Positions 23,196-64,000 of a DNA stretch of 64,000 bases are shown here, one piece after another. The notes beneath the pieces are model-generated. The model was not told the DNA's origin and did no database searches. It saw only the letters and a list, made by a program, of their open reading frames with translations. How positions within the stretch are numbered: the first letter of the stretch is position 1; each line of letters starts with the position of its first letter. Made by a program: the position numbers and the translations under genes. The stretch comes from Gammaproteobacteria bacterium (GTDB taxonomy: Bacteria > Pseudomonadota > Gammaproteobacteria > Ga0077536): assembly GCA_963662545.2 (NCBI GenBank), contig CAXXLL010000002.1:2527135-2591134 (forward strand). Reading direction: 5' to 3'.

Positions 23196-23237
23196 TTTTA
23201 TTTACCTCCTGAATTACAAGGCCCAAATCAACTGACC

Positions 23238-24847: not shown

Positions 24848-25340
24848 AAGAAACGAGCGTTTCCCCCGACGAGCGGCCCCTAGCGCAGCGCCATACCGCC
24901 ATGACCTGGGCGCAACGCCTCAAGCGGGTCTTCAACATCGACATCACCACCTGCCAGGCCTGTGACGGCACCCTGAAGGTCATTGCCTGCATCGAAGACC
25001 CCCACGTCATCCGCAAGATCCTCGACCACCTGGACAGGCTCGCACCAACAACCGACCCCAACTCATTACCCGAACCCCGAGCGCCCCCCCCAGCCGGGCC
25101 TGTTCGACACGCTCTGACCGTCCCGCTCTTCCCCGCACTGATGACCTTCCCAGACCCGGCAGAGTTTCGTTCGTCCGGGACCAGGAAAATGACCCACACC
25201 CCTCGCTCAACCACCACAACGTTCGCCAAATACAGCCCACATCCGGCAAGTTTTGCTCCACCTGCCCAGACCAACCAATACCAGTCAGCCCTTGGCAGGC
25301 TTGTCCTTCATCGGAATGTGGCTTTATGCTTCTATATGCG
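24848..25340 (+). mobile_element. ISCR/IS91-family remnant: transposase C-terminus plus oriIS-like end
   Basis: AMTWAQRLKRVFNIDITTCQACDGTLKVIACIEDP..I.KIL.HL..PRAPP; gtggctttatgcttctatatgc near 25318-25339 resembles ISCR oriIS ends. Confidence 0.75.
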
Positions 25341-25387
25341 CAGTACGCCATGTTCTGTCACTGCGCTAGAAGCCGCTAATCTCGCGG

Positions 25388-27427
25388 TCAGATCTCGCGC
25401 CCCAGCTGCTCTCCCTCGTAAATAATCGCAGCCAGCTTGCGTGGCGCGACCACATCTCCGACTCGGTGGACTTCTGGGAAGCTACCCCGAATTTCCTGAA
25501 ACAGGGCATCGTTCGGAGTCCGCAGCATAGAGAGAATAACGCTATCGACGGCGGCGATCGTGCGGGCCTGCCCGCCCCAGATGTTGTAGGTTTCGACCGT
25601 GTTCCCATCTACTTTCTCAATGTGATGCTGGGCCGTGAGCCGCACCCCGGCTTGAATGAGCTTGGGGTAGAGCACAGGCATGTCTCCAGTGCTGAAAGTG
25701 TCTTCACCGACAAACATGTGCGGAGAAATAACCTCGACCTCCGCGCCGCCTTGTGTGGCGAGTATCTCGGCGAGCCCGAGGGGCAGGTAGCTTGCGGTCT
25801 CGTCAACAATAATCACCCGCTTACCGAGTGCGGTGGGGTCTTCGAGGGCGCGGCGGGTGGCGGTCTCGACGTCCAGAACATGCTCCTGATCGGATCCAGG
25901 AATGCTCGCACGCTCGGACCGATACGGACTGAAACCACCGCCTGAGTCATACGTCGAGCCAGTGGCGCAGACAATGGCGTCGGCCTTTTCGTTTTCGAGC
26001 AAGCCTTTAGTCGCCGCCGTGCCGCACCGCACGATGACTCCGGCGGCTCCCATCTCATGCGTCAGATTATCAATCGCGCTTTGCCACTCGGCGCGAGTGG
26101 GTAGCCGTTTATGCAGATTGAGATGTCCCCCGAGTTCGTCTTCTTTTTCGATCAGGGTCACGTGATGGCCGCGCCTGGCTGCTATGGCCGCCGTCTTCAT
26201 GCCCGCAGGTCCGCCACCGACGATGACGATCTTTTTTGCTTCGTTTTCAGCGACCGATTTGAGCGTTCCGTCTCCCCATTGGCGCTCGCGTCCAACCGTG
26301 GGATTCATCAGACAGATCACTTCGCGATTGTTGAAAAGACGGTTCACACACTCGTTTGCCCCGACACATCTGATGATTTCCTTTTCTCGGCCCTCACGTG
26401 CTTTTGTCACGAGAAACGGGTCAGCCATTTGCGCGCGTGTCATCGCTACCATGTCGGCGGCCCCGTCGCTAAGGATCTGCTCTGCCATCGCGAGGTCGAG
26501 AATGCGGCCCACAATAAAAACCTTCGCGCGGTCGCCCACGATTTCTTTGGCGCGCTTGCCAAAAGGAACCAGAACGCCTTCTGGCCCACTACCCATGGGC
26601 GGGGCAACTCGATGTGGGGTTTGATAACCACCGCCTGAAATGTTGAAGAAATCGAATAAGCCGCTTGCAGCGAGGATCTCGGTCTGCTCCTCAGCTTGTT
26701 CCTGTGTGATCCCGGCCTCGCCTATGAATTCATCAAACGACAAGCGAATACCCAGCGTGAAGTCGGTGCCCACTTGCTGCCTGATACGCTCGCCAATCTC
26801 GAGCGCGAGCTGGCAGCGCTTTTGAACCGACCCGCCGTACCGGTCCGTTCGTTTATTGTAGGCCGGACTGAGAAACTGCCCGATCAGATAGCCGTGCGCA
26901 CCATGGATCTCGATTCCATCGAGGCCGGCGACTTTCACGTTCAGCGCCGACTCGCCGAAACCGGTGACCAGGTCATCGATGTGCGCTTGCTCCATCTGCA
27001 GAGGGATCTCTCTTCTCAGCACCGAGGGGATAGGCGACGCCGCCCACAACGGATGCCATTCGTCGATGAGCATCGTCCCTTGATCGTGAACGCCGGCAGC
27101 ATAGAGTTGGACAAATTGTTTCGCACCGTATGCGTGCACCGCCTCTGCCAGCTTCGCGTACTGGGGAATGGCGCGTTTTTCCCAAGCCGTACACCCCATG
27201 TGGAACGATCCCTTGCTAAGGCGATGGCCGGCTTGCTGCTCAGTGATGAGCAGTGCGACACCCCCCTTGGCTCGTTCGCGGTAGTAGGCGATATGACGAT
27301 CACTGAGAATGTGATCTTCTGCATACAGAACCGTTTGCGCGGTCATCATGATTCGGTGCTTGACCGTGGTATGACCGATGGTGAGAGGGCTCCACACGTG
27401 AGGCAATTCGGATAATGAGTCGCTCAT
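25388..27427 (-). CDS. NADH:flavin oxidoreductase (OYE / TMADH-like with FAD domain)
   Basis: YYRERAKGG, EIHGAHGYLIGQFLSP..NKRTDRYGG, IVGGGPAG. Confidence 0.92.
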   Translation of the reverse strand: MSDSLSELPHVWSPLTIGHTTVKHRIMMTAQTVLYAEDHILSDRHIAYYRERAKGGVALLITEQQAGHRLSKGSFHMGCTAWEKRAIPQYAKLAEAVHAYGAKQFVQLYAAGVHDQGTMLIDEWHPLWAASPIPSVLRREIPLQMEQAHIDDLVTGFGESALNVKVAGLDGIEIHGAHGYLIGQFLSPAYNKRTDRYGGSVQKRCQLALEIGERIRQQVGTDFTLGIRLSFDEFIGEAGITQEQAEEQTEILAASGLFDFFNISGGGYQTPHRVAPPMGSGPEGVLVPFGKRAKEIVGDRAKVFIVGRILDLAMAEQILSDGAADMVAMTRAQMADPFLVTKAREGREKEIIRCVGANECVNRLFNNREVICLMNPTVGRERQWGDGTLKSVAENEAKKIVIVGGGPAGMKTAAIAARRGHHVTLIEKEDELGGHLNLHKRLPTRAEWQSAIDNLTHEMGAAGVIVRCGTAATKGLLENEKADAIVCATGSTYDSGGGFSPYRSERASIPGSDQEHVLDVETATRRALEDPTALGKRVIIVDETASYLPLGLAEILATQGGAEVEVISPHMFVGEDTFSTGDMPVLYPKLIQAGVRLTAQHHIEKVDGNTVETYNIWGGQARTIAAVDSVILSMLRTPNDALFQEIRGSFPEVHRVGDVVAPRKLAAIIYEGEQLGREI

Positions 27428-46511: not shown

Positions 46512-46761
46512 ATGTCTGCTATGGAGGGTATTGCAGACGTAACTTTGAGCAGTGTTGCGGTAGCGCGATCCGGCGGCTATCGACCCAGACTGTGTGAAAA
46601 CTATTTTCATTTTTCAAAAGTGGGGGAACTACCCTCGAAATTGGATCTAATTGAAATGCCGATCCCTATTCGAGGGGCATAACAACTATGCTGGTGGGGA
46701 ATATTTTTATTTCGTCGTCGTATTTTTGAGTTTTCACACACTCTGGACCCATTCCGGACAT
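46512..46761 (+). repeat. Composite repeat R3 (unit B interrupted by MITE)
   Basis: atgtctgctatggagggtattgcagacgt-31nt-ggcggctatcGACC[MITE]GACCcattccggacat. Confidence 0.88.
46586..46745. mobile_element. 160-bp IS1182-type MITE, copy 1
   Basis: cagactgtgtgaaaact / agttttcacacactctg, GACC duplication. Confidence 0.92.
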
Positions 46762-47427: not shown

Positions 47428-47559
47428 TCAAGTATTTTGGCCGTAGGCGGAAGTCAGCGCCAGCAATGATATCCAGGCATTTTGGATGACTGCTTCCGAG
47501 AGTATTGCAGACGTAATCCTTGCCAGTGCTGCGCTGCAGCGATTAGGCAGCTAACGACC
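47428..47559 (+). repeat. Composite repeat R4 (right arm resumes at 49245-49260)
   Basis: ttggccgtaggcggaagt-33nt-gactgcttccgagagtattgcagacgt-31nt-ggcagctaacGACC. Confidence 0.88.
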
Positions 47560-49244
47560 CAGAGTGTGTGAAAACTCGGAATGAAGAGGAATCACGTCGA
47601 GAACTCCTCGTCAGACGCAACGCGGCGCGGTTACGACGGCCGCGCTCGCGGTCCAATGCGATCGGTTAGTTAATGGAACATTCCTTAGAACGGCCCCAGA
47701 AGCCGGCAGTGAAGCCGTGGATCAGGGAGTTTTCGAGGCCACAGAGGGTCTCATGCCGTCATCGCTTCGATGAGCGTAGCGACACCCAGTAGATTCATCA
47801 CGCGTTTCATGTTGTAAGCGAGCACGTGCAGACTCATTTCCGTACCAACGTGTTTCAGCGTGCGCATCTGGAAGTGGGTCGAACCCATCCAGGATTTGAT
47901 CGTGCCAAATGGATGCTCGACCGTCTCTCGGCGGACACGCATAGGGTCAGGTTCACGATCCAATCGCGCCTGCACCGCTTCAACAACCGCTTCATGTTCC
48001 CAACGGCTGACGCGCCGGTATCGACCCGTTGTGCATTTAGATTTGATCGGGCAGCGGGGACACGCCGAACTCCAGTAGCGCCGGATCTGCTTGCCTTTCT
48101 CCACTCGGGTGAACCGGTAAATCAGTCGCTCACCGGCCGGGCATTCATACGCATCCTCTTCGGGTTGGTAAATGAAGTCGCGCTTGCCAAACAAGCCCTT
48201 CGCCTGGTTACCCGAGGTCTGCGGTTTCGGCAGATAGGTCGTGATGCCGGCTTTAGCGCACGCCAAGATCTCTTCGCCACTGAAGTACCCGCGATCCGCA
48301 ACGACGGTCAACTCCTTCTTATCCAGCGCCTCTTTGGCTTTCTCCGACATGTTCGACAGTTGCGCCCGGTCATGACCTACGTTCGTCACTTCATGTGCCA
48401 CAATCAGATGACTCTTCGTGTCGACCGCCGTCTGCACGTTGTACCCCACCATGCCGCTGCCACGGCCGCTCGTCGCCATCGAGCGCGCGTCCGGGTCCGT
48501 CAGTGAGACCTGATGGTCCGGCGTCTCCTCGAGCCGTACCTCGAGCTTTTTTAGGCGGCCTATCTCTTCCTTCAGTACCTCGATCTTGTCCTTCAAACGC
48601 TGCGACTTGTCACCTGACACCGCACGCTCCTGGCGGTCGGCACTTGCAATTTCCGCCAGGTACCGCTCAACGCTCTCGTCAATCTGCTGCAACCGACGTT
48701 TCAGCTTCGCCTTCGTGAAGTTCCGGTCACGGTTGTTTACCGCTTTGAACTTGCTGCCATCTATCGCCACGAAGGCTTCCGAAAACAGCTGCAGCTTACG
48801 GCACAGCATCACGAACTCCCGGCATACCAGACGAATGGCGTCACCGTTATCTTTGCGGAAATCGGCAATGGTCTTGAAATCAGGCGCCAGACGACCCGTC
48901 AGCCACATCAGTTCCACGTTCCGCTGCGCCTCCCGTTCCAGGCGACGGCTCGATTGAACCCGGTTCAGGTAACCGTAGATATAGAGCTTCAGCATCGTCG
49001 CCGGGTGATACCCCGGTCGACCCGTCTCATGCGCATCGGTTCTGAAACTCAGACCTGACAGATCCAACTCATCGACGAACACATCGATGACCCGCACCGC
49101 ACTCTCCTCAGCGACATAATCGTCCAGACACTCGGGAAACAGCGTTGTTTGGCGGCGGTCCGCGCCTTCAATGAACCCGCTCATCAACGACTCCCCAGGA
49201 CCGAAAGAGTGATCTTATCTGATGCAGAGTTTTCACACACTCTG
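47560..49244 (-). mobile_element. IS1182-family element copy 1 (1685 bp)
   Basis: Inverted repeats cagagtgtgtgaaaactc / gagttttcacacactctg, GACC duplication. Confidence 0.95.
47751..49187 (-). CDS. IS1182 transposase
   Basis: GRPGYHP, SSRRLER, PDFKTIADFR, IDGSK, TDPDAR, ADRGY, VEHPFGTIK. Confidence 0.95.
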   Translation of the reverse strand: MMSGFIEGADRRQTTLFPECLDDYVAEESAVRVIDVFVDELDLSGLSFRTDAHETGRPGYHPATMLKLYIYGYLNRVQSSRRLEREAQRNVELMWLTGRLAPDFKTIADFRKDNGDAIRLVCREFVMLCRKLQLFSEAFVAIDGSKFKAVNNRDRNFTKAKLKRRLQQIDESVERYLAEIASADRQERAVSGDKSQRLKDKIEVLKEEIGRLKKLEVRLEETPDHQVSLTDPDARSMATSGRGSGMVGYNVQTAVDTKSHLIVAHEVTNVGHDRAQLSNMSEKAKEALDKKELTVVADRGYFSGEEILACAKAGITTYLPKPQTSGNQAKGLFGKRDFIYQPEEDAYECPAGERLIYRFTRVEKGKQIRRYWSSACPRCPIKSKCTTGRYRRVSRWEHEAVVEAVQARLDREPDPMRVRRETVEHPFGTIKSWMGSTHFQMRTLKHVGTEMSLHVLAYNMKRVMNLLGVATLIEAMTA

Positions 49245-49348
49245 GACCCTTTGCGGTCATCCTCGACCCAAACCGGAAATGTCAGTGGTGTACCTTTACA
49301 TACGTTAGTTCGCTTCCCCGGATTCGGCTCCACACGCTGGCTACAAAG

Positions 49349-49908: not shown

Positions 49909-50158
49909 ACGACCGCTATGGAGAGTACTGCAGACGTGATCTGGAACAGTGCTGCACCGCAGCGAGGGGGCCGCTAACGACCCAGACTGTGTGAAAACTA
50001 TTTTCATTTTTCAAAAGTGGGGGAACTACCCTCGAAATTGGATCTAATTGAAATGCCGATCCCTATTCGAGGGGCATAACAACTATGCTGGTGGGGAATA
50101 TTTTTATTTCGTCGTCGTATTTTTGAGTTTTCACACAGTCTGGACCCATAGCGGTCAT
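49909..50158 (+). repeat. Composite repeat R5 (unit B interrupted by MITE)
   Basis: acgaccgctatggagagtactgcagacgt-31nt-ggccgctaacGACC[MITE]GACCcatagcggtcat. Confidence 0.88.
49983..50142. mobile_element. 160-bp IS1182-type MITE, copy 2
   Basis: Interior matches copy 1; GACC duplication. Confidence 0.92.
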
Positions 50159-51271: not shown

Positions 51272-51345
51272 ACGACCGCTTACGAGCACATTGCAGACGT
51301 AATTCTTAGCAATGCTGCGCTGAGGCGACAGGGCAGCTAACGACC
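51272..51345 (+). repeat. Composite repeat R6 (right arm resumes at 53031-53046)
   Basis: acgaccgcttacgagcacattgcagacgt-31nt-ggcagctaacGACC. Confidence 0.88.
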
Positions 51346-53030
51346 CAGAGTGTGTGAAAACTCGGAATGAAGAGGAATCACGTCGAGAACTCCTCGTCAG
51401 ACGCAACGCGGCGCGGTTACGACGGCCGCGCTCGCGGTCCAATGCGATCGGTTAGTTAATGGAACATTCCTTAGAACGGCCCCAGAAGCCGGCAGTGAAG
51501 CCGTGGATCAGGGAGTTTTCGAGGCCACAGAGGGTCTCATGCCGTCATCGCTTCGATGAGCGTAGCGACACCCAGTAGATTCATCACGCGTTTCATGTTG
51601 TAAGCGAGCACGTGCAGACTCATTTCCGTACCAACGTGTTTCAGCGTGCGCATCTGGAAGTGGGTCGAACCCATCCAGGATTTGATCGTGCCAAATGGAT
51701 GCTCGACCGTCTCTCGGCGGACACGCATAGGGTCAGGTTCACGATCCAATCGCGCCTGCACCGCTTCAACAACCGCTTCATGTTCCCAACGGCTGACGCG
51801 CCGGTATCGACCCGTTGTGCATTTAGATTTGATCGGGCAGCGGGGACACGCCGAACTCCAGTAGCGCCGGATCTGCTTGCCTTTCTCCACTCGGGTGAAC
51901 CGGTAAATCAGTCGCTCACCGGCCGGGCATTCATACGCATCCTCTTCGGGTTGGTAAATGAAGTCGCGCTTGCCAAACAAGCCCTTCGCCTGGTTACCCG
52001 AGGTCTGCGGTTTCGGCAGATAGGTCGTGATGCCGGCTTTAGCGCACGCCAAGATCTCTTCGCCACTGAAGTACCCGCGATCCGCAACGACGGTCAACTC
52101 CTTCTTATCCAGCGCCTCTTTGGCTTTCTCCGACATGTTCGACAGTTGCGCCCGGTCATGACCTACGTTCGTCACTTCATGTGCCACAATCAGATGACTC
52201 TTCGTGTCGACCGCCGTCTGCACGTTGTACCCCACCATGCCGCTGCCACGGCCGCTCGTCGCCATCGAGCGCGCGTCCGGGTCCGTCAGTGAGACCTGAT
52301 GGTCCGGCGTCTCCTCGAGCCGTACCTCGAGCTTTTTTAGGCGGCCTATCTCTTCCTTCAGTACCTCGATCTTGTCCTTCAAACGCTGCGACTTGTCACC
52401 TGACACCGCACGCTCCTGGCGGTCGGCACTTGCAATTTCCGCCAGGTACCGCTCAACGCTCTCGTCAATCTGCTGCAACCGACGTTTCAGCTTCGCCTTC
52501 GTGAAGTTCCGGTCACGGTTGTTTACCGCTTTGAACTTGCTGCCATCTATCGCCACGAAGGCTTCCGAAAACAGCTGCAGCTTACGGCACAGCATCACGA
52601 ACTCCCGGCATACCAGACGAATGGCGTCACCGTTATCTTTGCGGAAATCGGCAATGGTCTTGAAATCAGGCGCCAGACGACCCGTCAGCCACATCAGTTC
52701 CACGTTCCGCTGCGCCTCCCGTTCCAGGCGACGGCTCGATTGAACCCGGTTCAGGTAACCGTAGATATAGAGCTTCAGCATCGTCGCCGGGTGATACCCC
52801 GGTCGACCCGTCTCATGCGCATCGGTTCTGAAACTCAGACCTGACAGATCCAACTCATCGACGAACACATCGATGACCCGCACCGCACTCTCCTCAGCGA
52901 CATAATCGTCCAGACACTCGGGAAACAGCGTTGTTTGGCGGCGGTCCGCGCCTTCAATGAACCCGCTCATCAACGACTCCCCAGGACCGAAAGAGTGATC
53001 TTATCTGATGCAGAGTTTTCACACACTCTG
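51346..53030 (-). mobile_element. IS1182-family element copy 2
   Basis: Same ends, length and protein as copy 1; GACC duplication. Confidence 0.95.
51537..52973 (-). CDS. IS1182 transposase
   Basis: Same 478-aa translation as copy 1. Confidence 0.95.
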   Translation of the reverse strand: MMSGFIEGADRRQTTLFPECLDDYVAEESAVRVIDVFVDELDLSGLSFRTDAHETGRPGYHPATMLKLYIYGYLNRVQSSRRLEREAQRNVELMWLTGRLAPDFKTIADFRKDNGDAIRLVCREFVMLCRKLQLFSEAFVAIDGSKFKAVNNRDRNFTKAKLKRRLQQIDESVERYLAEIASADRQERAVSGDKSQRLKDKIEVLKEEIGRLKKLEVRLEETPDHQVSLTDPDARSMATSGRGSGMVGYNVQTAVDTKSHLIVAHEVTNVGHDRAQLSNMSEKAKEALDKKELTVVADRGYFSGEEILACAKAGITTYLPKPQTSGNQAKGLFGKRDFIYQPEEDAYECPAGERLIYRFTRVEKGKQIRRYWSSACPRCPIKSKCTTGRYRRVSRWEHEAVVEAVQARLDREPDPMRVRRETVEHPFGTIKSWMGSTHFQMRTLKHVGTEMSLHVLAYNMKRVMNLLGVATLIEAMTA

Positions 53031-53083
53031 GACCCTAAGCAGACCTTGTAGGTTCTTGTACTCTGACCTCAAACCATTAGCAG

Positions 53084-53791
53084 CTATTCAGCGCGCTGCT
53101 TATCCCAGCCGTTCCAGAACGTCACATCGCGCGCCGGGAAGCGTTTCGCGGGTCTTAAATCGCCACCCTTGAGCCAGGCGACCGGTAGCAGTACCGCCTG
53201 CGTGTAATGCGCAGGAACGCCGAGAAGTTCCTGGATCTCTTTTTCATACATCAGAGTGAATGTCGTCCAGGCCGACGCAACTCCGCGCGCGCGGAGCGCC
53301 AGCATCAACGACCAGGCCGCCGGTAGAATGGACCCCCACATGGAGCCTTGGGTAAAGACATCTTCGTGGTCGAAGCGGTTTTCCAGGAAAAGCATGATGT
53401 GTACGGGGACGCGGTGCAGATTTTCTATTAAATGGACCGCCGATTTGACGATTAGAGGCATTCTTTGCTGACGCGGGTCGTCGTCAGGGTACTGTTTATC
53501 GACGGCCACGCCGGTGCGCGTTACTCCGGTTTCACCGGCCAGGTAACGCTCCGCCCCCTGGCGATACAGGTCAGCTATACCCGAGCGTAAATGTTCATCC
53601 GTGACTACGACGAAGCGCCAGGTCTGAGAATTCGCTCCGGTCGGTGCCTGGAGCGCCACTTCGATCGCTTCTTCGATCAGTGATTCCGGAACGGATCGCT
53701 CGAGGTCGAGGCGCAGACGGACCGTGCGCGTGGTCTTCATAACATGATCGACGCTTGCGAGGTCGATTTTCTTGGGGGCTTGCTCCGCCAT
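53084..53791 (-). CDS. Nitroreductase family protein
   Basis: TTRTVR, QAPTGANSQTWRFVVV, LALRARGVASAW. Confidence 0.9.
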   Translation of the reverse strand: MAEQAPKKIDLASVDHVMKTTRTVRLRLDLERSVPESLIEEAIEVALQAPTGANSQTWRFVVVTDEHLRSGIADLYRQGAERYLAGETGVTRTGVAVDKQYPDDDPRQQRMPLIVKSAVHLIENLHRVPVHIMLFLENRFDHEDVFTQGSMWGSILPAAWSLMLALRARGVASAWTTFTLMYEKEIQELLGVPAHYTQAVLLPVAWLKGGDLRPAKRFPARDVTFWNGWDKQRAE

Positions 53792-53930
53792 ATCTGCTCT
53801 CCAAGTTCGTTGTGCGAACGGGGACGGATAGCCGTCTCCGACATATTACACAGGCGTTGCTCCGACGCCGCTGTGATTCGATATCATTGCGCCGCTCTTT
53901 GTCTGCCAAGTGGCGCAGCGCGTCCAATTG

Positions 53931-54797
53931 TTAGTCGTTCAGTTCAACCGTGTCGCCCTGTTTGATTTCACCGGGCACGCGCACATGGGCGCCAACGCCA
54001 AGGCATTGGTCGCCTTCCTTCACCACAGTGCGCAATATCGATTTGTCATATTCGATATCGGCTTGTGGTCTTACGGTCATACCGCAACGCACCGTCGGCA
54101 TGGTGATCTCGAGGGTTGCCGAGCCGATCGCCAGAGTCTTGCCGACCCAGTCGTTTTCGACCAGGCCCGTTACCGCCGGGTCGGTCTCGATGTAGAAGTT
54201 CGGACGAAAACGCCGGATATCCCAGTTCGCGCCGGGATTTTTCCTGCGCATGTAGTCCATCGACGCCGTGGTGATCATATGGATCTCCTCATTGTCGAAA
54301 AAAGTGCCGGGGACCGCGACATGATCCATCAGCACCTCTGGGAACAGAGACATCTCCGGTACCGGTTCGCCCGGCTCGCGCGCGAAAAGCTCCGTCATTT
54401 CCTCAAGGAATACTTGTTCGTCCGGTTTGTGGCGCTTGTAGAATTCGAGATTGCTAGCTGGTTCGATTGCGCGCAACGTCGCATCACGCTCGATCAATTC
54501 GCTCAGTTTAGCGTTGACCCGCGCATCGTCGCTGCCGATCGTTTGCCCGTCGGGGAACGTGATAACGACCGGTGTGATCGCATCATCGCTCGGCTCGGCG
54601 CGATACCGCGCCGAGCACAGCATGAGCTGCGGATAACGCTTGCCCCATGTAATCTCCGCCCGTCCCTCGTCGCGCATCGCCCAGCACCGGTCACCCGCGA
54701 CGCCGGTTTGAGTGACCTTGCAGCGCTCGATTGTGTCGCCCTGCATCGATTTCACCGGAAAACGCCAAATCTCCTTTATCACTCCAACGCGCGCCAT
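53931..54797 (-). CDS. MOSC domain protein
   Basis: WRFPVKSMQG, GDR.WA, RRFRPN, RCGM. Confidence 0.92.
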   Translation of the reverse strand: MARVGVIKEIWRFPVKSMQGDTIERCKVTQTGVAGDRCWAMRDEGRAEITWGKRYPQLMLCSARYRAEPSDDAITPVVITFPDGQTIGSDDARVNAKLSELIERDATLRAIEPASNLEFYKRHKPDEQVFLEEMTELFAREPGEPVPEMSLFPEVLMDHVAVPGTFFDNEEIHMITTASMDYMRRKNPGANWDIRRFRPNFYIETDPAVTGLVENDWVGKTLAIGSATLEITMPTVRCGMTVRPQADIEYDKSILRTVVKEGDQCLGVGAHVRVPGEIKQGDTVELND

Positions 54798-54913
54798 ATT
54801 CGACTCCTCGCCACTATTGCTGTATGCCCACTGTCAAGAGTAACTCCGTTAGACACCCGCGCGCACTTCAAATCGATGCCCGTCGAATAATCGAGCTCAG
54901 AGCAACAACTCAT

Positions 54914-55222
54914 AAGGTCTGTTATTGGCCGAGGCTGTGTCAAAAGTATTTTCGAATTTTGAAAGTGGGAGAAGTTTAACCCGATTCGCCTACCTTAGGC
55001 GGTGCGTTCCCTTAATCAATCGTGCATAACAACCTAAGTGGGGAAAATTTTCGCGGCGGGCTCCATTTTTCGACTTTTGACACAGCCTCGGCCGGAAGCC
55101 GAAGTCACCTCCAGCGATGTTTTCTAAACAAGCTGAATGGCCGCTTACGAGCGCATTGCAGACCTGACCCCAAGCAGTGCTGCACTGCCGCGAGGAGGCG
55201 GCTGACGACCCATTTCAGCCAC
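54914..55222 (+). repeat. Composite repeat R7 (unit 0 interrupted by MITE; A+B intact)
   Basis: ggtctgttattGGCC[MITE]GGCCggaagccgaagt-33nt-ggccgcttacgagcgcattgcagacct-31nt-ggcggctgacgacccatttcagcc. Confidence 0.88.
54931..55089. mobile_element. 159-bp IS1182-type MITE, second subfamily
   Basis: Inverted repeats gaggctgtgtcaaaagt / acttttgacacagcctc, GGCC duplication. Confidence 0.9.
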
Positions 55223-55328
55223 CCAAGCGAAATTTTCTCGACTTGCTGGCTGAGTTGACCGAGAGTCTCCCAGAGCGCCCGCGAAGAACATTGTACAATC
55301 CACTTCGACGCACAAGGGAGGAATCACC

Positions 55329-55706
55329 ATGTCAGAACGACACACCGAACTTTACGCAATCACATTGAAATTCCTCGACGCATTCAATCGTAACGATCTC
55401 GATGACGTCATGTCATTTTTCTCCAATGAAGCCGTTTATGAAGAGCTGCATGGCAAGATTAACGACGGCAAGGACGCGATTCGCGAAGCCTTTGTTCCCC
55501 AATTCGAAGGAAAGTTCGGCAAAATGGAGTTTATAGAAGACGACACTTTTATTGACGCTGACGCCGGCAAGATCATGAGCGGTTGGGATCTGCATATGGA
55601 AAAAGACGGCGGGCCAGTGGTGGTGAAAGGGCTTGATCTGCTTTACTTCGAGGGCGATAAAATTGTACGCAAGCAGACGTTTGTGAAGCAGAAAGATCCG
55701 TTGTAA
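55329..55706 (+). CDS. SnoaL/NTF2-like protein
   Basis: FLDAFNRNDLD.VM.FF..AVY, G.DL..FEGDKI. Confidence 0.85.
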   Translation: MSERHTELYAITLKFLDAFNRNDLDDVMSFFSNEAVYEELHGKINDGKDAIREAFVPQFEGKFGKMEFIEDDTFIDADAGKIMSGWDLHMEKDGGPVVVKGLDLLYFEGDKIVRKQTFVKQKDPL

Positions 55707-55821
55707 GAGAGACGCTCTGTAAGCCGGGGCCGAATCGACTCGATAAATAAATGGGGCCAAGCAAACACGACCGTGAACGCCGTGAATTTTTACTCTGGCC
55801 CCGAGGGATGAGGAGAGCGAG

Positions 55822-56316
55822 ATGACACTGCCTGATTCTGCAATCCTGCTCCGGCGTGGAGAGGGCGACTATGTGACCATCGGGACCGGCACTCGCTGTA
55901 CCTTTAAGCTCAGGGGGGAAAACACGGACGGGCATTTCGGTCTGTTCGAGTATGTGATGGAGCCTGGGACTGAAGGACCGCGGCGCCATATCCATCGTCA
56001 GATGGCGGAAATCTTCTACGTGGTCGAAGGAGAGCTCGAATTCATCGTTGGAGACGAGAAGATCACGGCCCGGGCCGGTACGACCGCCCTCGTCCCCAAG
56101 GAGGTTGTGCATGCCTTTTCCAACCCGGGCCCGCAGCGCTCGGTGTTGCTGGTTATGTTTTGCCCGGCAGACTCGCGTGAGAAATACTTCGAGGGGCTGG
56201 CTGAACTCCTCAAAGACGGGCAAGCGTCGGATCAAGAAGCCTTACTGGAGTTGATGCGGCAACATGACACCGAGCCGGTGGCGGAACCGCTCTATGGAGA
56301 AATAGATGCGCCGTAA
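55822..56316 (+). CDS. Cupin domain protein
   Basis: HIH...EIFYVVEG, VP..VVHAFSN. Confidence 0.88.
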   Translation: MTLPDSAILLRRGEGDYVTIGTGTRCTFKLRGENTDGHFGLFEYVMEPGTEGPRRHIHRQMAEIFYVVEGELEFIVGDEKITARAGTTALVPKEVVHAFSNPGPQRSVLLVMFCPADSREKYFEGLAELLKDGQASDQEALLELMRQHDTEPVAEPLYGEIDAP

Positions 56317-56368
56317 AGGAAGCTAGTGTGCTGTCCCGCAAGAAACTTACGCTCAAATAAATCTGTCC

Positions 56369-57721
56369 CTGAAGGCTCCCCACGAATTGAAGGAGAATTC
56401 ACATAAAAAATAGCCATTTAGAAAAATAAATAGCGAACAATAGGGAACATGCATGACGTTCGGTGATCAATAACGGTGACGAAACCAAATTGGTCACGGG
56501 AGAACGCCATGCATGCACTGAGATTGTTGCACAAAATAATGGGGCAAGCCTGTCCGCAGATACACGCGGTAAGGCTAACGGCATTGATGGCGAGCGTTGA
56601 GGCCCTTTTGGTCGGCCGTCAGATGAGCTTAGCCGGTCTTGGTCGCGCCTTGCTGTCGGGGGCGCGAGTCAAACACAACATCAAGCGAGTCGACCGGTTA
56701 ATTGGCAACCGTCATCTGTGGGGAGAACGAACGGAACTCTATGGGGCGATGGCGGGGCTGGTGCTTGGACAAGGACCACGTCCGGTAATTATTCTGGACT
56801 GGTCGGATATGCGCGAAGATCGGTCATGGCAGTTGTTGCGTGCGGCGGTTCCGGTGGGAGGCCGTTCACTGACGCTCTACGAAGAAGTACATCCCTTGTC
56901 GGCGTATGACAACCGGGGTGTCAGGAAACGGTTTCTGGAGCGTCTTCGAGAGATCTTACCACCGGGGTGTCGCCCGCTCTTAGTCACGGATGCCGGCTTC
57001 CGGACGACTTGGTTTAGACAGGTCGAAGCAATGGGTTGGGACTGGGTCGGTCGGGTCCGCGGGCGCACCCATTTCCGGCTGGACAACCAGGCAAGCTGGC
57101 AACCGTGCCGGACGTTGCATGCGATGGCCAACTCACGTGTGCGGCATATCGGGACAGTCGAACTAACGGTATCGAATCCATTGGCCTGTGACCTGTACCT
57201 GGTGAAGAAGAAAAAGCGTGGCCGTCAACAACTGACCTGCCGCGGCACGCGTGCCCGTGGTGGCCGCAGCCTTAGCTGTGAACGACGCCAGCGCGAACCC
57301 TGGATATTGGTCACCTCACTGGGGTCGCGCGCGGCCCAGCAGGTGATGCGGTGTTATCAGTTGCGCATGCAGATTGAGGAGAGTTTCCGGGATATGAAAA
57401 ATGCCCGTTTGGGACTGCACTTCCGCAGCGCGCGTTCCAACAGCGCCGAGCGGCTCTCGATCCTCGTCCTGATTGGTACGTTGGCAACATTAGTCGCTTG
57501 GTTAGTCGGCCAAGCGATGCAGCGTTTCGGGCTGCAGCGCCATTACCAGGCCAATACAACCCGGCATCGGCCGGTACTCTCCACCGTCTTTCTGGGCTTG
57601 CAAAGTTTTTGCAGGCAACCCGTAAAGCTTATGCTGGCAGACATCAAGCAATCGATTATCGCCTTACACCAAAATACCGCAAACCCGTTGCGTTATGCGT
57701 AAGTTCGTGGGGATCCTTCAG
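56369..57721 (+). mobile_element. IS4-family (IS10-like) element
   Basis: Inverted repeats ctgaaggctccccacgaa / ttcgtggggatccttcag; 9-bp duplication aatctgtcc. Confidence 0.93.
56509..57702 (+). CDS. IS4-family transposase
   Basis: ILDWS, TDAGFR, YQLRMQIEESFRDMK (YREK). Confidence 0.93.
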   Translation: MHALRLLHKIMGQACPQIHAVRLTALMASVEALLVGRQMSLAGLGRALLSGARVKHNIKRVDRLIGNRHLWGERTELYGAMAGLVLGQGPRPVIILDWSDMREDRSWQLLRAAVPVGGRSLTLYEEVHPLSAYDNRGVRKRFLERLREILPPGCRPLLVTDAGFRTTWFRQVEAMGWDWVGRVRGRTHFRLDNQASWQPCRTLHAMANSRVRHIGTVELTVSNPLACDLYLVKKKKRGRQQLTCRGTRARGGRSLSCERRQREPWILVTSLGSRAAQQVMRCYQLRMQIEESFRDMKNARLGLHFRSARSNSAERLSILVLIGTLATLVAWLVGQAMQRFGLQRHYQANTTRHRPVLSTVFLGLQSFCRQPVKLMLADIKQSIIALHQNTANPLRYA

Positions 57722-57725
57722 AATC

Positions 57726-57856
57726 TGTCCCCTTTGGCAGAGAGCCGAAGTTGCCGCCGCCGCTCACTGTTACGTAAGTCGAGTGACCGCTTACAAGCGC
57801 ATTGCAGACGTAATCTAGGGCGGTGCTGCACTGCCGCGATTAGGCCGCTGACGACC
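57726..57856 (+). repeat. Composite repeat R8 (right arm resumes at 59542-59557)
   Basis: ttggcagagagccgaagt-33nt-gaccgcttacaagcgcattgcagacgt-31nt-ggccgctgacGACC. Confidence 0.88.
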
Positions 57857-59541
57857 CAGAGTGTGTGAAAACTCGGAATGAAGAGGAATCACGTCGAGAA
57901 CTCCTCGTCAGACGCAACGCGGCGCGGTTACGACGGCCGCGCTCGCGGTCCAATGCGATCGGTTAGTTAATGGAACATTCCTTAGAACGGCCCCAGAAGC
58001 CGGCAGTGAAGCCGTGGATCAGGGAGTTTTCGAGGCCACAGAGGGTCTCATGCCGTCATCGCTTCGATGAGCGTAGCGACACCCAGTAGATTCATCACGC
58101 GTTTCATGTTGTAAGCGAGCACGTGCAGACTCATTTCCGTACCAACGTGTTTCAGCGTGCGCATCTGGAAGTGGGTCGAACCCATCCAGGATTTGATCGT
58201 GCCAAATGGATGCTCGACCGTCTCTCGGCGGACACGCATAGGGTCAGGTTCACGATCCAATCGCGCCTGCACCGCTTCAACAACCGCTTCATGTTCCCAA
58301 CGGCTGACGCGCCGGTATCGACCCGTTGTGCATTTAGATTTGATCGGGCAGCGGGGACACGCCGAACTCCAGTAGCGCCGGATCTGCTTGCCTTTCTCCA
58401 CTCGGGTGAACCGGTAAATCAGTCGCTCACCGGCCGGGCATTCATACGCATCCTCTTCGGGTTGGTAAATGAAGTCGCGCTTGCCAAACAAGCCCTTCGC
58501 CTGGTTACCCGAGGTCTGCGGTTTCGGCAGATAGGTCGTGATGCCGGCTTTAGCGCACGCCAAGATCTCTTCGCCACTGAAGTACCCGCGATCCGCAACG
58601 ACGGTCAACTCCTTCTTATCCAGCGCCTCTTTGGCTTTCTCCGACATGTTCGACAGTTGCGCCCGGTCATGACCTACGTTCGTCACTTCATGTGCCACAA
58701 TCAGATGACTCTTCGTGTCGACCGCCGTCTGCACGTTGTACCCCACCATGCCGCTGCCACGGCCGCTCGTCGCCATCGAGCGCGCGTCCGGGTCCGTCAG
58801 TGAGACCTGATGGTCCGGCGTCTCCTCGAGCCGTACCTCGAGCTTTTTTAGGCGGCCTATCTCTTCCTTCAGTACCTCGATCTTGTCCTTCAAACGCTGC
58901 GACTTGTCACCTGACACCGCACGCTCCTGGCGGTCGGCACTTGCAATTTCCGCCAGGTACCGCTCAACGCTCTCGTCAATCTGCTGCAACCGACGTTTCA
59001 GCTTCGCCTTCGTGAAGTTCCGGTCACGGTTGTTTACCGCTTTGAACTTGCTGCCATCTATCGCCACGAAGGCTTCCGAAAACAGCTGCAGCTTACGGCA
59101 CAGCATCACGAACTCCCGGCATACCAGACGAATGGCGTCACCGTTATCTTTGCGGAAATCGGCAATGGTCTTGAAATCAGGCGCCAGACGACCCGTCAGC
59201 CACATCAGTTCCACGTTCCGCTGCGCCTCCCGTTCCAGGCGACGGCTCGATTGAACCCGGTTCAGGTAACCGTAGATATAGAGCTTCAGCATCGTCGCCG
59301 GGTGATACCCCGGTCGACCCGTCTCATGCGCATCGGTTCTGAAACTCAGACCTGACAGATCCAACTCATCGACGAACACATCGATGACCCGCACCGCACT
59401 CTCCTCAGCGACATAATCGTCCAGACACTCGGGAAACAGCGTTGTTTGGCGGCGGTCCGCGCCTTCAATGAACCCGCTCATCAACGACTCCCCAGGACCG
59501 AAAGAGTGATCTTATCTGATGCAGAGTTTTCACACACTCTG
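57857..59541 (-). mobile_element. IS1182-family element copy 3
   Basis: Same ends, length and protein; GACC duplication. Confidence 0.95.
58048..59484 (-). CDS. IS1182 transposase
   Basis: Same 478-aa translation. Confidence 0.95.
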   Translation of the reverse strand: MMSGFIEGADRRQTTLFPECLDDYVAEESAVRVIDVFVDELDLSGLSFRTDAHETGRPGYHPATMLKLYIYGYLNRVQSSRRLEREAQRNVELMWLTGRLAPDFKTIADFRKDNGDAIRLVCREFVMLCRKLQLFSEAFVAIDGSKFKAVNNRDRNFTKAKLKRRLQQIDESVERYLAEIASADRQERAVSGDKSQRLKDKIEVLKEEIGRLKKLEVRLEETPDHQVSLTDPDARSMATSGRGSGMVGYNVQTAVDTKSHLIVAHEVTNVGHDRAQLSNMSEKAKEALDKKELTVVADRGYFSGEEILACAKAGITTYLPKPQTSGNQAKGLFGKRDFIYQPEEDAYECPAGERLIYRFTRVEKGKQIRRYWSSACPRCPIKSKCTTGRYRRVSRWEHEAVVEAVQARLDREPDPMRVRRETVEHPFGTIKSWMGSTHFQMRTLKHVGTEMSLHVLAYNMKRVMNLLGVATLIEAMTA

Positions 59542-59782
59542 GACCCTTATGCGACATTCGTCGATTTCGACAACTACCCTAATAGAAAGCAGCGCGGCCT
59601 TCGGAAAGGCGGTAAGCAAAGCGGGCAACACCGTTGTCGCGGCGCCCATAACTGGGCGCAGACTGGGAAGCCCGGAGGTCATCGTTTTCGTTCAAATTTC
59701 GGTGACCGAGGGATTAGAATTCGAATCCTGACGAGAATATCGTCCCTCCATCACCCTTTTTTCCGAAGGAACCGACTAAATC

Positions 59783-60688
59783 ATGATTGAAGCGCACGAG
59801 ACCTTCGACGGCACCTGGCCGTTTGCTCCGAATTTCTTCCACGGCAACGGCTTTGCGATGCACTACGTGGATGAAAACCCCGAAGGCACAGAGACGTTTC
59901 TTTGCGTCCACGGAGAACCTACCTGGGGCTACCTCTACCGGAACATCATTCCACGATTGGCGAGGCATGGCCGCGTGGTGGTCCCGGATCAGATGGGCTT
60001 CGGCAAAAGCGAAACGCCACAGGACCGTCGATACACCATCGAAGAGCACTGCGAGAATTTGGACAAGCTGGTACTCGAGCTTGATTTAACCAACCTGACG
60101 TTGGTGCTGCAGGACTGGGGTGGGCCGATAGGCAGTGCGGTTGCATACCGCCACCCTGAAAGGGTCAAACGGCTTTGCGTCATGAATGCGATTGTCGGTG
60201 GCCGCTCCAAGGAAAGCTCGTCTGTGTTCAGCACATCACCGTGGCCCGTGTGGGTTGCCGGGCCTTCTTTTGAACCGACCATCCACAACTTGAACAGTAC
60301 CGTGCTGTCGGTAATGAAACGCGTCGGTTTCGAACGCACTGCCGATATCGACGAGACTTGGGTTCGCGCCTACGCCGCGCCCTTCCCAACGCCTGAGTCA
60401 TGTATAGCGGCCTACCGCTTTCCGCAATGTATCGCCGACAGGGAAACGGTGGATTACCTCAAATCCATCCGCACGCCGGAGGCCGTCGCTTCGGTAAAGC
60501 AAAAGCCCGCCATGATGGTGTTCGGCGAGGCCGACCGCGCGCTGCCTCAATCATTTACCATCGGGTGTTTTAAAGATTTGTGGCCCGACGCGCCGGTTGT
60601 CACGCTACCTGGCGTCGGGCATTTTCTACAGGAGGATGCGCCGGAGACGGTGTCGGCGCTGATTGAACAGTTTGTCCAGATGACGTGA
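59783..60688 (+). CDS. Haloalkane dehalogenase-like alpha/beta hydrolase
   Basis: HGEPTWGYLYR, QDWGG nucleophile elbow, GHFLQEDAP. Confidence 0.85.
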   Translation: MIEAHETFDGTWPFAPNFFHGNGFAMHYVDENPEGTETFLCVHGEPTWGYLYRNIIPRLARHGRVVVPDQMGFGKSETPQDRRYTIEEHCENLDKLVLELDLTNLTLVLQDWGGPIGSAVAYRHPERVKRLCVMNAIVGGRSKESSSVFSTSPWPVWVAGPSFEPTIHNLNSTVLSVMKRVGFERTADIDETWVRAYAAPFPTPESCIAAYRFPQCIADRETVDYLKSIRTPEAVASVKQKPAMMVFGEADRALPQSFTIGCFKDLWPDAPVVTLPGVGHFLQEDAPETVSALIEQFVQMT

Positions 60689-60868
60689 TGACGATGACTT
60701 GCGCCTTTAAGGAACCTCTGAACAGTAATTATCTCGGTCCGTATAAAAATAACGGGCGAACATCATTTAGAAACCCAGTAACAGTGTTTATTTCCATGGT
60801 GACGGGAGTTTAGCGCGAGGATCTGCCCGGCGGTCAACCATTTTTATACAGACAGCGCGACGGACTTA

Positions 60869-61177
60869 ACGTTTGTTGTTGGCCGAGAACCGTCCTGCTC
60901 CGCTAACGTTCCGCCCAATGCTACTCGACGACCGCTTTCGGGCGCATAGAAGACGTAACGTTTAGCAATGCTGCATTGCCGCGAGGCGGCGGCTCACGAC
61001 CCAGAGTGTGTGAAAACTATTTTCATTTTTCAAAAGTGGGGGAACTACCCTCGAAATTGGATCTAATTGAAATGCCGATCCCTATTCGAGGGGCATAACA
61101 ACTATGCTGGTGGGGAATATTTTTATTTCGTCGTCGTATTTTTGAGTTTTCACACAGTCTGGACCCTTTGCGGACAT
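60869..61177 (+). repeat. Composite repeat R9 (unit B interrupted by MITE)
   Basis: ttggccgagaaccgtcct-33nt-gaccgctttcgggcgcatagaagacgt-31nt-ggcggctcacGACC[MITE]GACCctttgcggacat. Confidence 0.88.
61002..61161. mobile_element. 160-bp IS1182-type MITE, copy 3
   Basis: Interior matches copies 1 and 2; GACC duplication. Confidence 0.92.
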
Positions 61178-61214
61178 TTAGCGGCCGACCATGACTTCCA
61201 ATTCGATCAGTTTG

Positions 61215-61484
61215 CTAGGCATTTCTGTGCATTTCGTTCACGAGGTCTTGAAAAGAATTACTTACAAAGTTTTTTTGGCGCTCCCAAGATTCCCTTCCGC
61301 CAGCGGTATTTACGATGAATTCTATCGTTCTGTATGTTGCAGACCAGTGATCTTCATCGAGTGCTTGTGATCGTTTTTGATGGTATTGAATATCACTTTC
61401 GCGAAATGCCTGCAGCATAATCAAGTCGAACCGGCCTCTATCTTCTGCAGCCTGGTTCTGGTCCGGGGAGAGTACGGGAATCAC
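61215..61484 (-). pseudogene. C-terminal fragment of a family-X protein
   Basis: RFD...YHQ...LDEDHW...TAGGRESW...SFQDLVNE. Confidence 0.65.
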
Positions 61485-61498
61485 ACCCCGTATAATGG

Positions 61499-61700
61499 CT
61501 ACGTCGTAGGTTCCTTCAGCTTTTCGGCGCCAATCTCGGTCGGTCGCAACTGAATGCGAGACTTGTGCCCAGCTTCGCTGATATAACGCTCCGCAACTGC
61601 GACCGTGCTGGGAAGGTCAGCGAGCGTGATCGACAAGTTGGGCCACGCTTCTGCCATCGCCACTGAAACGCCGCCGGAGCCGACCCCCTCGCGAAGTGAT
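61499..61700 (-). pseudogene. O-methyltransferase internal fragment
   Basis: GVGSGG.S.AMAEAWPNL..TLADLP. Confidence 0.65.
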
Positions 61701-61910
61701 GTCTGAGTCTCCATGAATTCTGCTGGTAGGCTTCTGCTAGGGCAGTGGCTCGATTTCTCACGATAATTCCGCCGTATTTATGAGAAGAAGCCATGTCCGA
61801 TCGCCGTTGCTTTCTCGAGGGATTTTCGTGTCAGGTCAAAGATTCGATAAGACTACGACGCTCTGAGATGGTGATGCAGGTACTCATCCAATATCGACCG
61901 GGGGAAGACG

Positions 61911-62855
61911 ATGAACTCACAAAGGAAGCGACCGTTGAAACTGGGCCTGGTTCTCCCCGAGGCCGAGTGGGACATGGGTGGCAAAACTGCTGGCTGGAGC
62001 GACTATGTGGCCATGGCCCGACTGATCGAGGACATGGGTATCGACTCCATATGGTTCGTTGATCACCTGCTTTATCGCGGCGACGCGACCACCATCGAGC
62101 AGCAGGGCGTAAGAGAATGCTGGTCCATTCTCACGGGTCTCGCGGCCATAACCGAACGAGTGGAACTGGGCTCACTGGTGACACCTACCTCGTACCGCAA
62201 CCCGGCCATGCTGGCCAAAATTGTGGATACGGTGGAGGAGATCTCCGGTGGACGAATCATCCTCGGCCTCGGTGCCGGCTGGCACGGAGATGAATACCGT
62301 GCCTTCGGCTATCCGTTCGATCGCCTGGTCTCCCGTTTTGAAGAGGCCTTTACCATTATCCGCGGCCTGCTGGTGGACGGTGCCGTGGATTTCGAGGGCA
62401 CCTATTACTCGGCCAGAGATTGCGAGCTGCGCCCGCGCGGCCCTCGCCCCAATGGGCCCCCAATCATGATCGGTTCAACCGGCAAACGCATGTTGCGTAT
62501 CACGGTGCCGCACGTTCAGATGTGGAATGCCTGGCTGTGCAGCGAACGCAGCAACGCCGACGAGGTTCCGGCACGGCGTGAGCTCGTCGATGCGGCATGC
62601 CGTGACGCGGGCCGGGATCCGGCGACGCTGGAACGCACCATCTCCATCCAGGTGGCCCCGACCGGAACAGGCAAGATACCGTTGAGTATGGCGCCGGATA
62701 CAGCCACGCCACTTTCCGGTTCGCCGCAGGAGATTGCCGCCGGCATCCGGGATTTCGCACAGCAGGGTATCGCGCACCTGCAGGTGGCTCTGGTGCCGAA
62801 TACGATTGAGAGCATCGAAAGCTTCGGGAAGGTACTGGAAGAACTGGACCGGTAA
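61911..62855 (+). CDS. LLM-class flavin-dependent oxidoreductase
   Basis: DSIWFVDH, RNPAMLAK, SGGRIILGLGAGW, PPIMIG. Confidence 0.92.
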   Translation: MNSQRKRPLKLGLVLPEAEWDMGGKTAGWSDYVAMARLIEDMGIDSIWFVDHLLYRGDATTIEQQGVRECWSILTGLAAITERVELGSLVTPTSYRNPAMLAKIVDTVEEISGGRIILGLGAGWHGDEYRAFGYPFDRLVSRFEEAFTIIRGLLVDGAVDFEGTYYSARDCELRPRGPRPNGPPIMIGSTGKRMLRITVPHVQMWNAWLCSERSNADEVPARRELVDAACRDAGRDPATLERTISIQVAPTGTGKIPLSMAPDTATPLSGSPQEIAAGIRDFAQQGIAHLQVALVPNTIESIESFGKVLEELDR

Positions 62856-63081
62856 CGGCTGCTCGAACGTGGGGTATAGCTATGTGCGAACAAGTTTCCA
62901 GCGACAAGGTGAGTACATGCTCATCGGATGAGTTTCACTCCAGTCGCAAGAACTATTACAGTGACTCTCGGGTCCATGTCGGGTCTCCAGCGAAGGAAAA
63001 ACCGACACTACAATCTGCGGTTCACACTTGAGGTGCGTATAACTCCTCTTATGTCAAACGTGATTTCCTTTCTGTTATCCG

Positions 63082-63262
63082 TCAGTTCTCTCGCAGCACT
63101 GGCTCGATTCGCTCGAGCGCCCAATCGACCTCGTCTTTGCTGATCACCAACGGAGGGGTGAAGCGAACCGTATCCTTGTGGGTTTCTTTGCACAATACGC
63201 TACGCTTCAGCAGCGCCTCGCAATACCGACGTGCACCGCCGGCTTGGGGATGGAACTCCACT
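63082..63262 (-). pseudogene. rocD: Ornithine aminotransferase C-terminal fragment
   Basis: ARRYCEAL....LCKETH..TVRF.PPLVI. Confidence 0.75.
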
Positions 63263-63564
63263 AATTGGCGGCGACCCATAATTGCTACTCGCCGGATGTT
63301 TAACGTGAAGTGGGGGGGAAGAGGTGTTAATGCCGCCTATACTTGGCACCGTCGCTCTGGCCGTCGGCCGGAGACCAGCGCTCAGGGTGCGTATGGGGTG
63401 CGTCAGCGGGCCGCGAGAGTGGGACATAAAAGCAGGAAATACGCTTCAAGACAAACCTACGGCGGGGTGAAGCGCGCGACCACCGGCCACGACCTTCGAC
63501 CTCAACCAAATTGATGTGTGGTCGCCGGGGTAGTATGTCGCGAGACCGGGCATGTCCGCTTTTG

Positions 63565-64000
63565 TTAAGGGTTGTCAGATGCCTGCCGTAGACAGTGGAC
63601 GGACTGGGTCGAGAGGGTGGGGGCAGGCGTCTGACAAGCCTCAAGGGAGGAAACCGCGGGAGAAGAACGCCGGCGCGTTGGTCGGCACGGTGCTATGGGG
63701 ATTTGAGGGTGGCGTTGTTCGGATTGATATGATCGGTAGCCAACGGCAAGCGGTGTGTCGGGCAAGAACGGGTCAGCGTGCAATGAGGTGGGTGGGTGAC
63801 CGGACGTTGAGGAGCGGGATCGGTACCGCTATGTGGTTTCGTCACGGCGCCAAGCAAGACGGTAACGTTGCCGGTGGTAAAGCGGCGATTTGTGGGCTGG
63901 TGGGCTGGCGAGTTCGAACGGTCGAGGGTCAAGGTGGGTCGCCTCCGCGGTGCGGTGGTGCACAGGGCGCGTGACCGGGCTCGAAGGTGTCGATGATGTG
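63565..64000 (-). mobile_element. Probable end of an IS91-like element (last 23 aa of CDS at 63929-64000 plus terminal hairpin)
   Basis: HIIDTFEPGHAPCAPPHRGGDPP* resembles IS91-family C-termini; 23-bp imperfect inverted repeat at 63565-63587 / 63621-63643. Confidence 0.5.

Follow-up and report, generated by a model that had tools for sequence, protein, structure and literature searches.

Elements of the IS91 family (IS91, IS801, IS1294, IS1294b) encode a transposase with a zinc-binding region and a Y2 HUH domain, and have two unlike ends. Members that additionally carry a tyrosine recombinase (YR) are already known, and we take ISAzo26, ISWz1 and ISMno23, as entered in ISfinder, to belong to this YR-carrying IS91 subgroup. 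The gene order there is YR followed by transposase, the order also found in the present element, and the same pair can be seen in public annotation (e.g., NC_009955.1). ISShvi3, which lies beside an attC site, is a further YR-carrying IS91 element according to the available sections of PMC9229058, and in the available text of Smyshlyaev et al. (10.1101/542381) the YRs of IS91 elements group with integron integrases, whose closest relatives they are, and lack the IntI insertion. For IS801 and IS1294, the ter cleavage site is GTTC and the functional intermediate is a bottom-strand circle (PMC13181058, available sections).

The window analyzed here, a stretch of 64,000 nucleotides from a gammaproteobacterial genome, ends inside an element of this kind. 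What it holds is the right end of the element, a YR-carrying IS91 member inserted site-specifically in a family of palindromic repeats (hereafter units). The element probably does not differ in kind from others of the subgroup.

Comparison with known systems

In common with the IS91 family, the element has a ter-side GTNC with an adjacent palindrome and a preference for the bottom strand (PMC13181058, available sections), cleavage there being predicted for the present element. It differs in having a YR upstream of the transposase, where IS91 family members have orf121 or nothing, and in its target, which is a 28-bp palindrome; the tetranucleotide (CTTG, GTTC or GTCC) beside oriIS was not encountered. 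The bases 5′ of the proposed ori nick were mostly CGCT (19 cases) and otherwise varied, unlike the target tetranucleotide of canonical IS91. Two bases are common to both junctions and two variable bases are added, and the left end pairs with a sub-terminal repeat 70–110 bases from the right end, neither of which belongs to IS91. A target other than a tetranucleotide marks a variant subgroup, not canonical IS91.

Integrons share with the element a related YR (33% identity to an integron-integrase-like gene of the source genome) and joined ends that form a long imperfect hairpin, best on one strand, known here from predicted folds. On the window strand the sequence at the right end is GTTAAGG, which resembles GTTRRRY, the integron core site. 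However, the YR has a gap of ~22 residues against the IntI-like protein of the source genome and scores 187 against TIGR02249, where the cut-off is 265; moreover, the element encodes its own enzymes and uses a symmetric palindromic target that is neither attI nor attC. With Tn554/SE it shares the appearance of donor flank bases at the opposite junction of a new insertion (PMC10214605, available sections), but those elements use two or more YRs with helper proteins, leave a 6-bp footprint and have no HUH enzyme, compared with one YR, one Y2 transposase and a 2-base footprint here. Helitron2 elements likewise have an inverted repeat at the terminal hairpin whose partner is sub-terminal, upstream of the hairpin of the other end, with compensatory changes (PMC3627910, available sections); they are, however, eukaryotic, encode a RepHel protein with a helicase, have no YR and use short AT-rich targets.

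The host XerCD recombinases, as used at dif, pdif and IMEX sites, which consist of a XerC arm, a 6-bp spacer and a XerD arm, were considered as the enzyme and rejected, the units being without a XerD arm and having arms 1–2 bases closer together (compared by hand). The genome does contain a dif-like site (in the region of G000 C2:2180020, beginning ATGTTCGCA) in which seven of nine bases are like the unit arm ATGTCCGCT. This likeness hints that the arms may be binding sites for a Xer-like recombinase.

The element and its genomic context

The 3′ limit of the window (64000) is the end of contig C2, and the following 3 kb could not be read there. The element carries on in contig C3, where C3:13429-8971 is 100% identical to window 59542-64000 and a full-length identical copy of 2,586 bp (~2.6 kb), with a YR and an IS91 Y2 transposase, occupies C3:6823-9408. 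From the sequence and this copy, window 63563-64000 (minus strand) comprises the right, ori-side 438 bases of the element, truncated at the contig edge; the right junction is crossed without differences by a contig of public run X2. Contig C3 opens with an inverted duplicate of the tRNA-containing core (1-5976 against 20980-26954), which suggests an inversion or assembly ambiguity around the island, and because of which the C3 copy and the C2 end may be one locus assembled twice. The stretch from window position 32144 begins with the 3′ end of a tRNA-like sequence.

Within the C3 copy, the YR gene (C3:6945-7835, 296 aa) matches PF00589 and PF13495 and retains the catalytic R-K-H-R-H-Y. Beginning 13 bases after it, the transposase gene (397 aa) matches PF14319 and PF04986, with 429.5 bits against NF033538 (cut-off 125), and is thus of the IS91 Y2 (HUH) family. 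The minus-strand coding sequence at the window's edge (63929-64000), seen by the earlier note, is its last 23 codons and stop, ending HIIDTFEPGHAPCAPPHRGGDPP-stop. That note had proposed an IS91-family Y2 transposase accompanied by a YR just outside the window, and a far end adjoining the other half of the unit. The YR does lie directly upstream of the transposase, and the far end of the C3 copy adjoins exactly the missing spacer and palindrome arm.

The source genome holds three near-identical copies of the element (A1–A3; the YR of A3 is interrupted by a 1.4-kb insertion) and a second family of three (B1–B3) at ~60–65% amino-acid identity to the first. All six complete elements adjoin units or one another, A3 and B2 being arranged in tandem such that the right end of one element serves as the left flank of the other; tandem dimers are also present in G061 and G064. 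A motif scan of the source genome found no non-autonomous mini-copies with both ends, and a search of 40000-64000 against Rfam gave a single chance-level match (E = 0.24). The element is real and probably active.

YR-carrying IS91 elements are common: a transposase relative was encoded in 592 of the 595 candidate stretches that a scan of species-level genomes returned. The 79 loci retained have transposases at 56–70% identity, with a YR directly upstream in 72; of the remaining seven, two are at a contig edge, one is mis-oriented, two have an interrupted YR and two have none. The catalytic residues are conserved in 60–62 of 64 aligned YRs, and the HUH motif and both tyrosines in 74–76 of 76 transposases. 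Five cysteines are conserved in the transposases as well. YR and transposase identities are weakly correlated (r = 0.26, 62 elements).

Target site and junctions

The half-unit recognized by the earlier note, ATGTCCGCTTTT at 63552-63563, is present as described (comparison unit ATGTCTGCTAT...ATTGCAGACGT at 46512-46540). Its match to an arm of the units stands, but its description as a left arm in the same orientation depends on the strand, the units being symmetric; on the element strand it is the right arm of the target. The nine conserved bases of the arm occupy 63552-63560 (plus strand; ATGTCCGCT(TTT) at 63552-63563), followed by two variable bases (63561-63562, plus strand), apparently the target's, which differ among identical copies. 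The element's final dinucleotide comes next (63563-63564, minus; CA when read along the element); it recurs at the left junction and is termed here the crossover dinucleotide.

The units are non-random, with a strict pattern giving 77 matches in the source genome against 7 for a reversed-pattern control. The target can be described as a 28-bp palindrome in which a spacer of 6–7 bases, closed by the crossover dinucleotide, is flanked on each side by two bases and then an arm. Read along the element strand, each of the six right ends in the source genome shows AAC or ACC, A, two bases and the arm (e.g., AGCGGAC), and five of six left ends read the arm, two bases, xGGCCA, two bases and GGAC, the exception being the A3-B2 tandem. 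A pre-insertion version of the window's exact site was not found in 40 relatives or elsewhere in the source genome, and the comparison with empty sites rests on paralogous empty units. There is no classical target duplication; both junctions have two bases in common, and the occupied site has two more than the empty paralogous units.

Most of the 79 related loci, from many genomes, adjoin such half-units at a fixed register, an association that had been anticipated. With up to two mismatches allowed, 37 of 62 right flanks fit the arm consensus (background 1.9%), and 20 of 51 left flanks match the arm (background 3.9%). Of 85 elements, 70 were kept after exclusion of the mis-oriented L034, four without the right motif, eight without an end call, and L023 and L070, which were off register by eye; the 47-element junction test additionally drops tandem or duplicated ends (A3, B2, L057, L066) and short flanks. 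In that test, both junctions show the same base at the first crossover position (the last element base) in 45/47 elements and at the second (the base following it) in 44/47 (35.4 and 18.1 when permuted), while the next two bases agree in just 18/47 and 22/47 (16.0 and 12.8 when permuted). Flank complementarity within an insertion does not exceed that of permuted pairs (3.49 against 3.39 of 7 bases), and the arms are therefore a degenerate consensus. Public runs X16, X17 and X19 show right flanks at L002:9280-9440 that are missing from the assembly and lead into the same arm; related strains thus hold further insertions that follow the rule.

The two variable bases and their apparent hand-over

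In genomes with multiple copies, the first shared base is fixed within each family on both sides (A, C or G) and the next two are variable at either end. Among eleven identical copies of 2,612 bp in G064, for example, there are seven left and eight right variants of the two-base spacer. Empty paralogous units in the source genome hold one such pair, and insertion therefore adds one. The right pair tracks the right flank in all three pairs of copies with related flanks, and the left pair differs even between copies in which 103 flank bases agree. In two pairs of copies some 104 left-flank bases are identical, which may represent carried DNA or a repeated target.

Left pairs recur among the right pairs of sister copies in 15 of 16 cases in G062 (pooled), 8 of 10 in G061 and 9 of 11 in G064, where 8.4, 4.3 and 6.1 are expected, although related copies are counted as independent in these tests, with p-values overstated, and the pooled test could be inflated by host-specific target composition. 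Family 6 of G062 taken alone gave no hand-over signal (2/8 against 2.9). The simplest reading of these patterns is that the circle takes up the pair flanking its parent on the right and deposits it at the left junction of the daughter. Left spacers tend to complement the two bases after the sub-terminal repeat (48 of 96 cases, 33.0 expected) and right spacers show no such tendency (37, 32.3 expected), in a pairing test that did not discriminate between strands.

The literature searched, including the available sections of PMC5737581 and PMC10288648, yielded no description of the target rule, the two-base hand-over or the internal dinucleotide match described below, though an earlier description is possible.

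Structure of the ends

The hairpin of the earlier note (63565-63643) is real and extends one base further, its arms at 63565-63587 and 63622-63644 pairing at 20 of 23 positions by Watson–Crick rules. It forms the inner stem (63565-63644, plus strand) of a larger fold of the joined ends, and the fold of region 63540-63720 has a z-score of -2.9, equalled by 2 of 200 shuffles. Beside it, a sub-terminal 12-mer (63646-63657, minus strand) is an inverted copy of the first 12 bases of the element, giving an asymmetric terminal inverted repeat. Across 24 end types, 251 of 288 positions of these 12-mers pair (permuted mean 215.5, maximum 234), with compensatory changes at three positions and 3–4 pair types at two; the pairing persists when the inner motif is located without the left end (194 against 166.7). 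The joined ends form one long hairpin, the bottom strand giving the better fold in 48 of 52 cases, and the natural head-to-tail junction of A3 and B2 folds at z = -6.2 (-29.6 kcal/mol bottom, -22.4 top). On the bottom strand, left ends read GTCC, GTGC, GTTC or GTAC in 57 of 57 elements, three of the four bases being fixed by the search motif, and a left-end hairpin at -3 kcal/mol or better is predicted in 63 of 66.

Counted from the end of the inner motif, bases three and four (TG on the element strand in the window, 63642-63643, minus) are complementary to the crossover dinucleotide in 62 of 70 elements (24.3 when permuted), with 0–7 of 70 at other offsets. This internal dinucleotide, a candidate two-base guide, also complements the dinucleotide on the target side in 46 of 52 elements (permuted 17.6). 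Seven dinucleotide types show the complementarity, and of the eight exceptions at the element end six form G·T wobbles on the bottom strand (judged by hand). Over the transposase tree of 64 elements, at least 17 changes of the end dinucleotide are counted, and of 13 phylogenetically independent pairs, nine match exactly, three by wobble and one not at all. It is likely that the internal dinucleotide helps to aim insertion.

A further motif, AAATCCCCATAGC (element strand), is located at window 63692-63704, 35–47 bases inside the sub-terminal repeat, and has close variants in family B and in the G061 and G064 elements; it is possibly a binding site for the transposase.

Proposed mechanism

We favor, with moderate confidence, a mechanism of two steps divided between the two enzymes, in which the transposase would copy the element out and the YR would integrate the folded circle. 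In the first step, the Y2 transposase would peel away the bottom strand. It would begin immediately outside the variable bases of the right junction and stop at the GTNC of the left end, a sequence similar to the ter cleavage tetranucleotide of the IS91 family; the resulting single-stranded circle would include the two right-flank bases of the parent. In the second, the joined ends of the circle would fold into one long hairpin, and a YR, whether the element's own or one supplied in trans, would carry out a single-strand exchange with the target at a point two bases inward, where the target would be checked by pairing to the internal dinucleotide. Replication would complete the insertion and leave the two carried bases at the new left junction.

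A hand-over of two bases would require two cut positions, two bases apart. The outer position coincides on the left with GTCC, GTGC or GTTC on the bottom strand. The inner is the edge of an 11-base arm and needs two bases of identity, as is expected at an arm edge for a single YR strand exchange. Since the outer cut is ter-like and the inner YR-like, copy-out by the transposase and integration by the YR are favored. Against this reading, the YR lacks the DNA-recognition insertion carried by integron integrases, and the 2-base footprint is shorter than the spacers known for YRs, which are of 6–8 bases. The YR-less copies and the Helitron2 end pairing taken up below also count against it, as do the bases at the proposed ori nick, the flank complementarity at permuted level and the G062 family without a hand-over signal. 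In its favor, flank-to-flank footprints are described for the YR elements Tn554 and SE (PMC10214605, available sections). No circle junction was found among the joints and loose ends listed for seven public runs, in which contigs show presence, not absence. The literature searched held no statement on the role of the recombinase in YR-carrying IS91 elements.

If the two-step model is true, rolling-circle transposition is linked to single-strand site-specific recombination, which bears on the origin of integron cassettes. The junction rules define a direct assay, giving the target, the joined-end substrate and a predicted cut for each enzyme, with the two internal bases predicted to change the target.

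Alternative explanations

The main alternative, possible though rather unlikely, is that the Y2 transposase alone copies the element out and targets it, the folded ends and internal dinucleotide serving as a DNA guide and the YR being accessory (e.g., resolving tandem dimers or cointegrates); if so, a Y2 enzyme is aimed by DNA pairing. YR-less copies speak for it, representing a lineage whose transposase is apparently conserved and that hits the same target. Three such copies of 1.69 kb in G066 (L222, L223, L225) are 82–92% identical with third-position-biased changes and keep the same target and junction rule. The YR-less 1.69-kb elements in G066 and L068 have intact ends and normal junctions, and offer a natural test set for the YR requirement. 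In IS200/IS605 a guide pairs with the cleavage site, which counts toward targeting by a transposase alone, as does the existence of tandem dimers in three genomes. According to the available sections of the respective papers, canonical IS91 inserts bottom-strand circles with TnpA alone (PMC13181058), and the ends of Helitron2 pair without a YR (PMC3627910). A single cut register, however, cannot give both a varying left spacer and a right spacer that follows the target, the target is a two-armed palindrome with no tetranucleotide, and the YR catalytic residues are strongly conserved. Furthermore, a YR-bearing relative occurs in each of the two genomes that have YR-less copies (a distant one in G066), and the YR could possibly be supplied in trans to the G066 copies.

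More doubtful is an extension of the two-step reading, in which the two enzymes form a system whose target is set by the two internal bases, and the same YR would also exchange host gene modules between repeats, in an integron-like manner without IntI or attC. Duplicated low-copy segments end on half-sites in 15 of 560 cases (2.5 for shifted controls), five of them exactly at the crossover, which indicates that modules are exchanged at the repeats. The cargo module next to the element (61167-63562), recognized from its sequence, from unit and MITE ends and from Pfam matches, lies between inverted arms at 61169-61177 and 63552-63560, and contains a luciferase-like monooxygenase gene with fragments of a class-III aminotransferase and a probable O-methyltransferase (Pfam match slightly below its cut-off). 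The fragments, at 61499-61714 and 63082-63279, flank the intact luciferase-like gene. This content suggests captured or decayed DNA, unlike clean one-gene cassettes.

Less probable still is the proposal that the element, or its YR in trans, creates the units and shuffles the modules as the engine of an integron-like array system. The earlier note had offered that the element inserts at the units or generates them, and insertion at units is upheld by the junctions, with generation and the role of engine finding no support. The same breakpoint excess, the layout of the element itself as a cargo module with the same junction register, and the adjacency of all six complete source-genome elements to units or each other would fit an engine. 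Yet units abound where the element was not detected: in G038 the strict pattern has 52 matches and its control 2, the remaining 59 genomes being near their controls, and in G038 and G054 the same units stand between genes although neither genome has a transposase match or a YR above 34%. G038 is in 190 contigs, in which multi-copy elements could be unassembled, and G054 is one contig, 100% complete. Conversely, five genomes with 6–23 transposase matches show little or no excess (15/6, 7/22, 10/6, 19/7 and 12/11 strict units/control), bearing in mind that the strict pattern misses degenerate units. The module breakpoints are, in addition, few, partly from one event, inside conserved repeats and coincident with the IS1182 insertion point, and most exact ones end in CC, where source-genome elements need CA; the source genome also has other recombinases, including two integron-integrase-like genes and small YRs. 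The element thus probably did not create the repeats, which are most likely an older, independently maintained family of sites exploited by this element and by IS1182.

A last reading, in which recombination by the YR is strand-biased as in Tn554/SE and suffices for both excision and integration, with the HUH protein just replicating the circle, is very improbable even though the target resembles a YR site and flank-to-flank footprints are described in YR-only elements (PMC10214605, available sections), given that an HUH ter site and its neighboring palindrome fit the left end (63 of 66 fold), that YR-less copies retain the transposase with the reverse not seen, and that the footprint is only 2 bases.

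Other recombinases and mobile DNA associated with the repeats

Catalytic-domain-only YRs of ~180–210 aa (L213:4758-5381, L214:4216-4752, L209:3118-3675) occur in or near unit-containing islands of the source genome and G038, and are candidates for an array enzyme. The integron-integrase-like genes of the source genome are at L216:3655-4671 and L217:4129-5211, with no palindromic units within ~4–5 kb of either. Units also form a three-palindrome module of ~150 bp, the outer two facing outward (e.g., window 60880-61003), whose middle unit has at least 70 copies genome-wide; the module is also found in G038, which is of another family.

Six units in the window are occupied by IS1182 copies and MITEs (46585-46746, 47559-49245, 49982-50143, 51345-53031, 57856-59542 and 61001-61162). 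The three IS1182 copies and the three ~160-bp MITEs share the same ends and lie in unit spacers with a 4-base repeat, ACCC, in the register used by the IS91 element. The 8.2-kb stretch at 51347-59546, bounded by two IS1182 copies, is duplicated at C3:909923-918197 (99.8%), and a clean empty site for it is present at C3:13425; it looks like a composite transposon with a pre-insertion allele.
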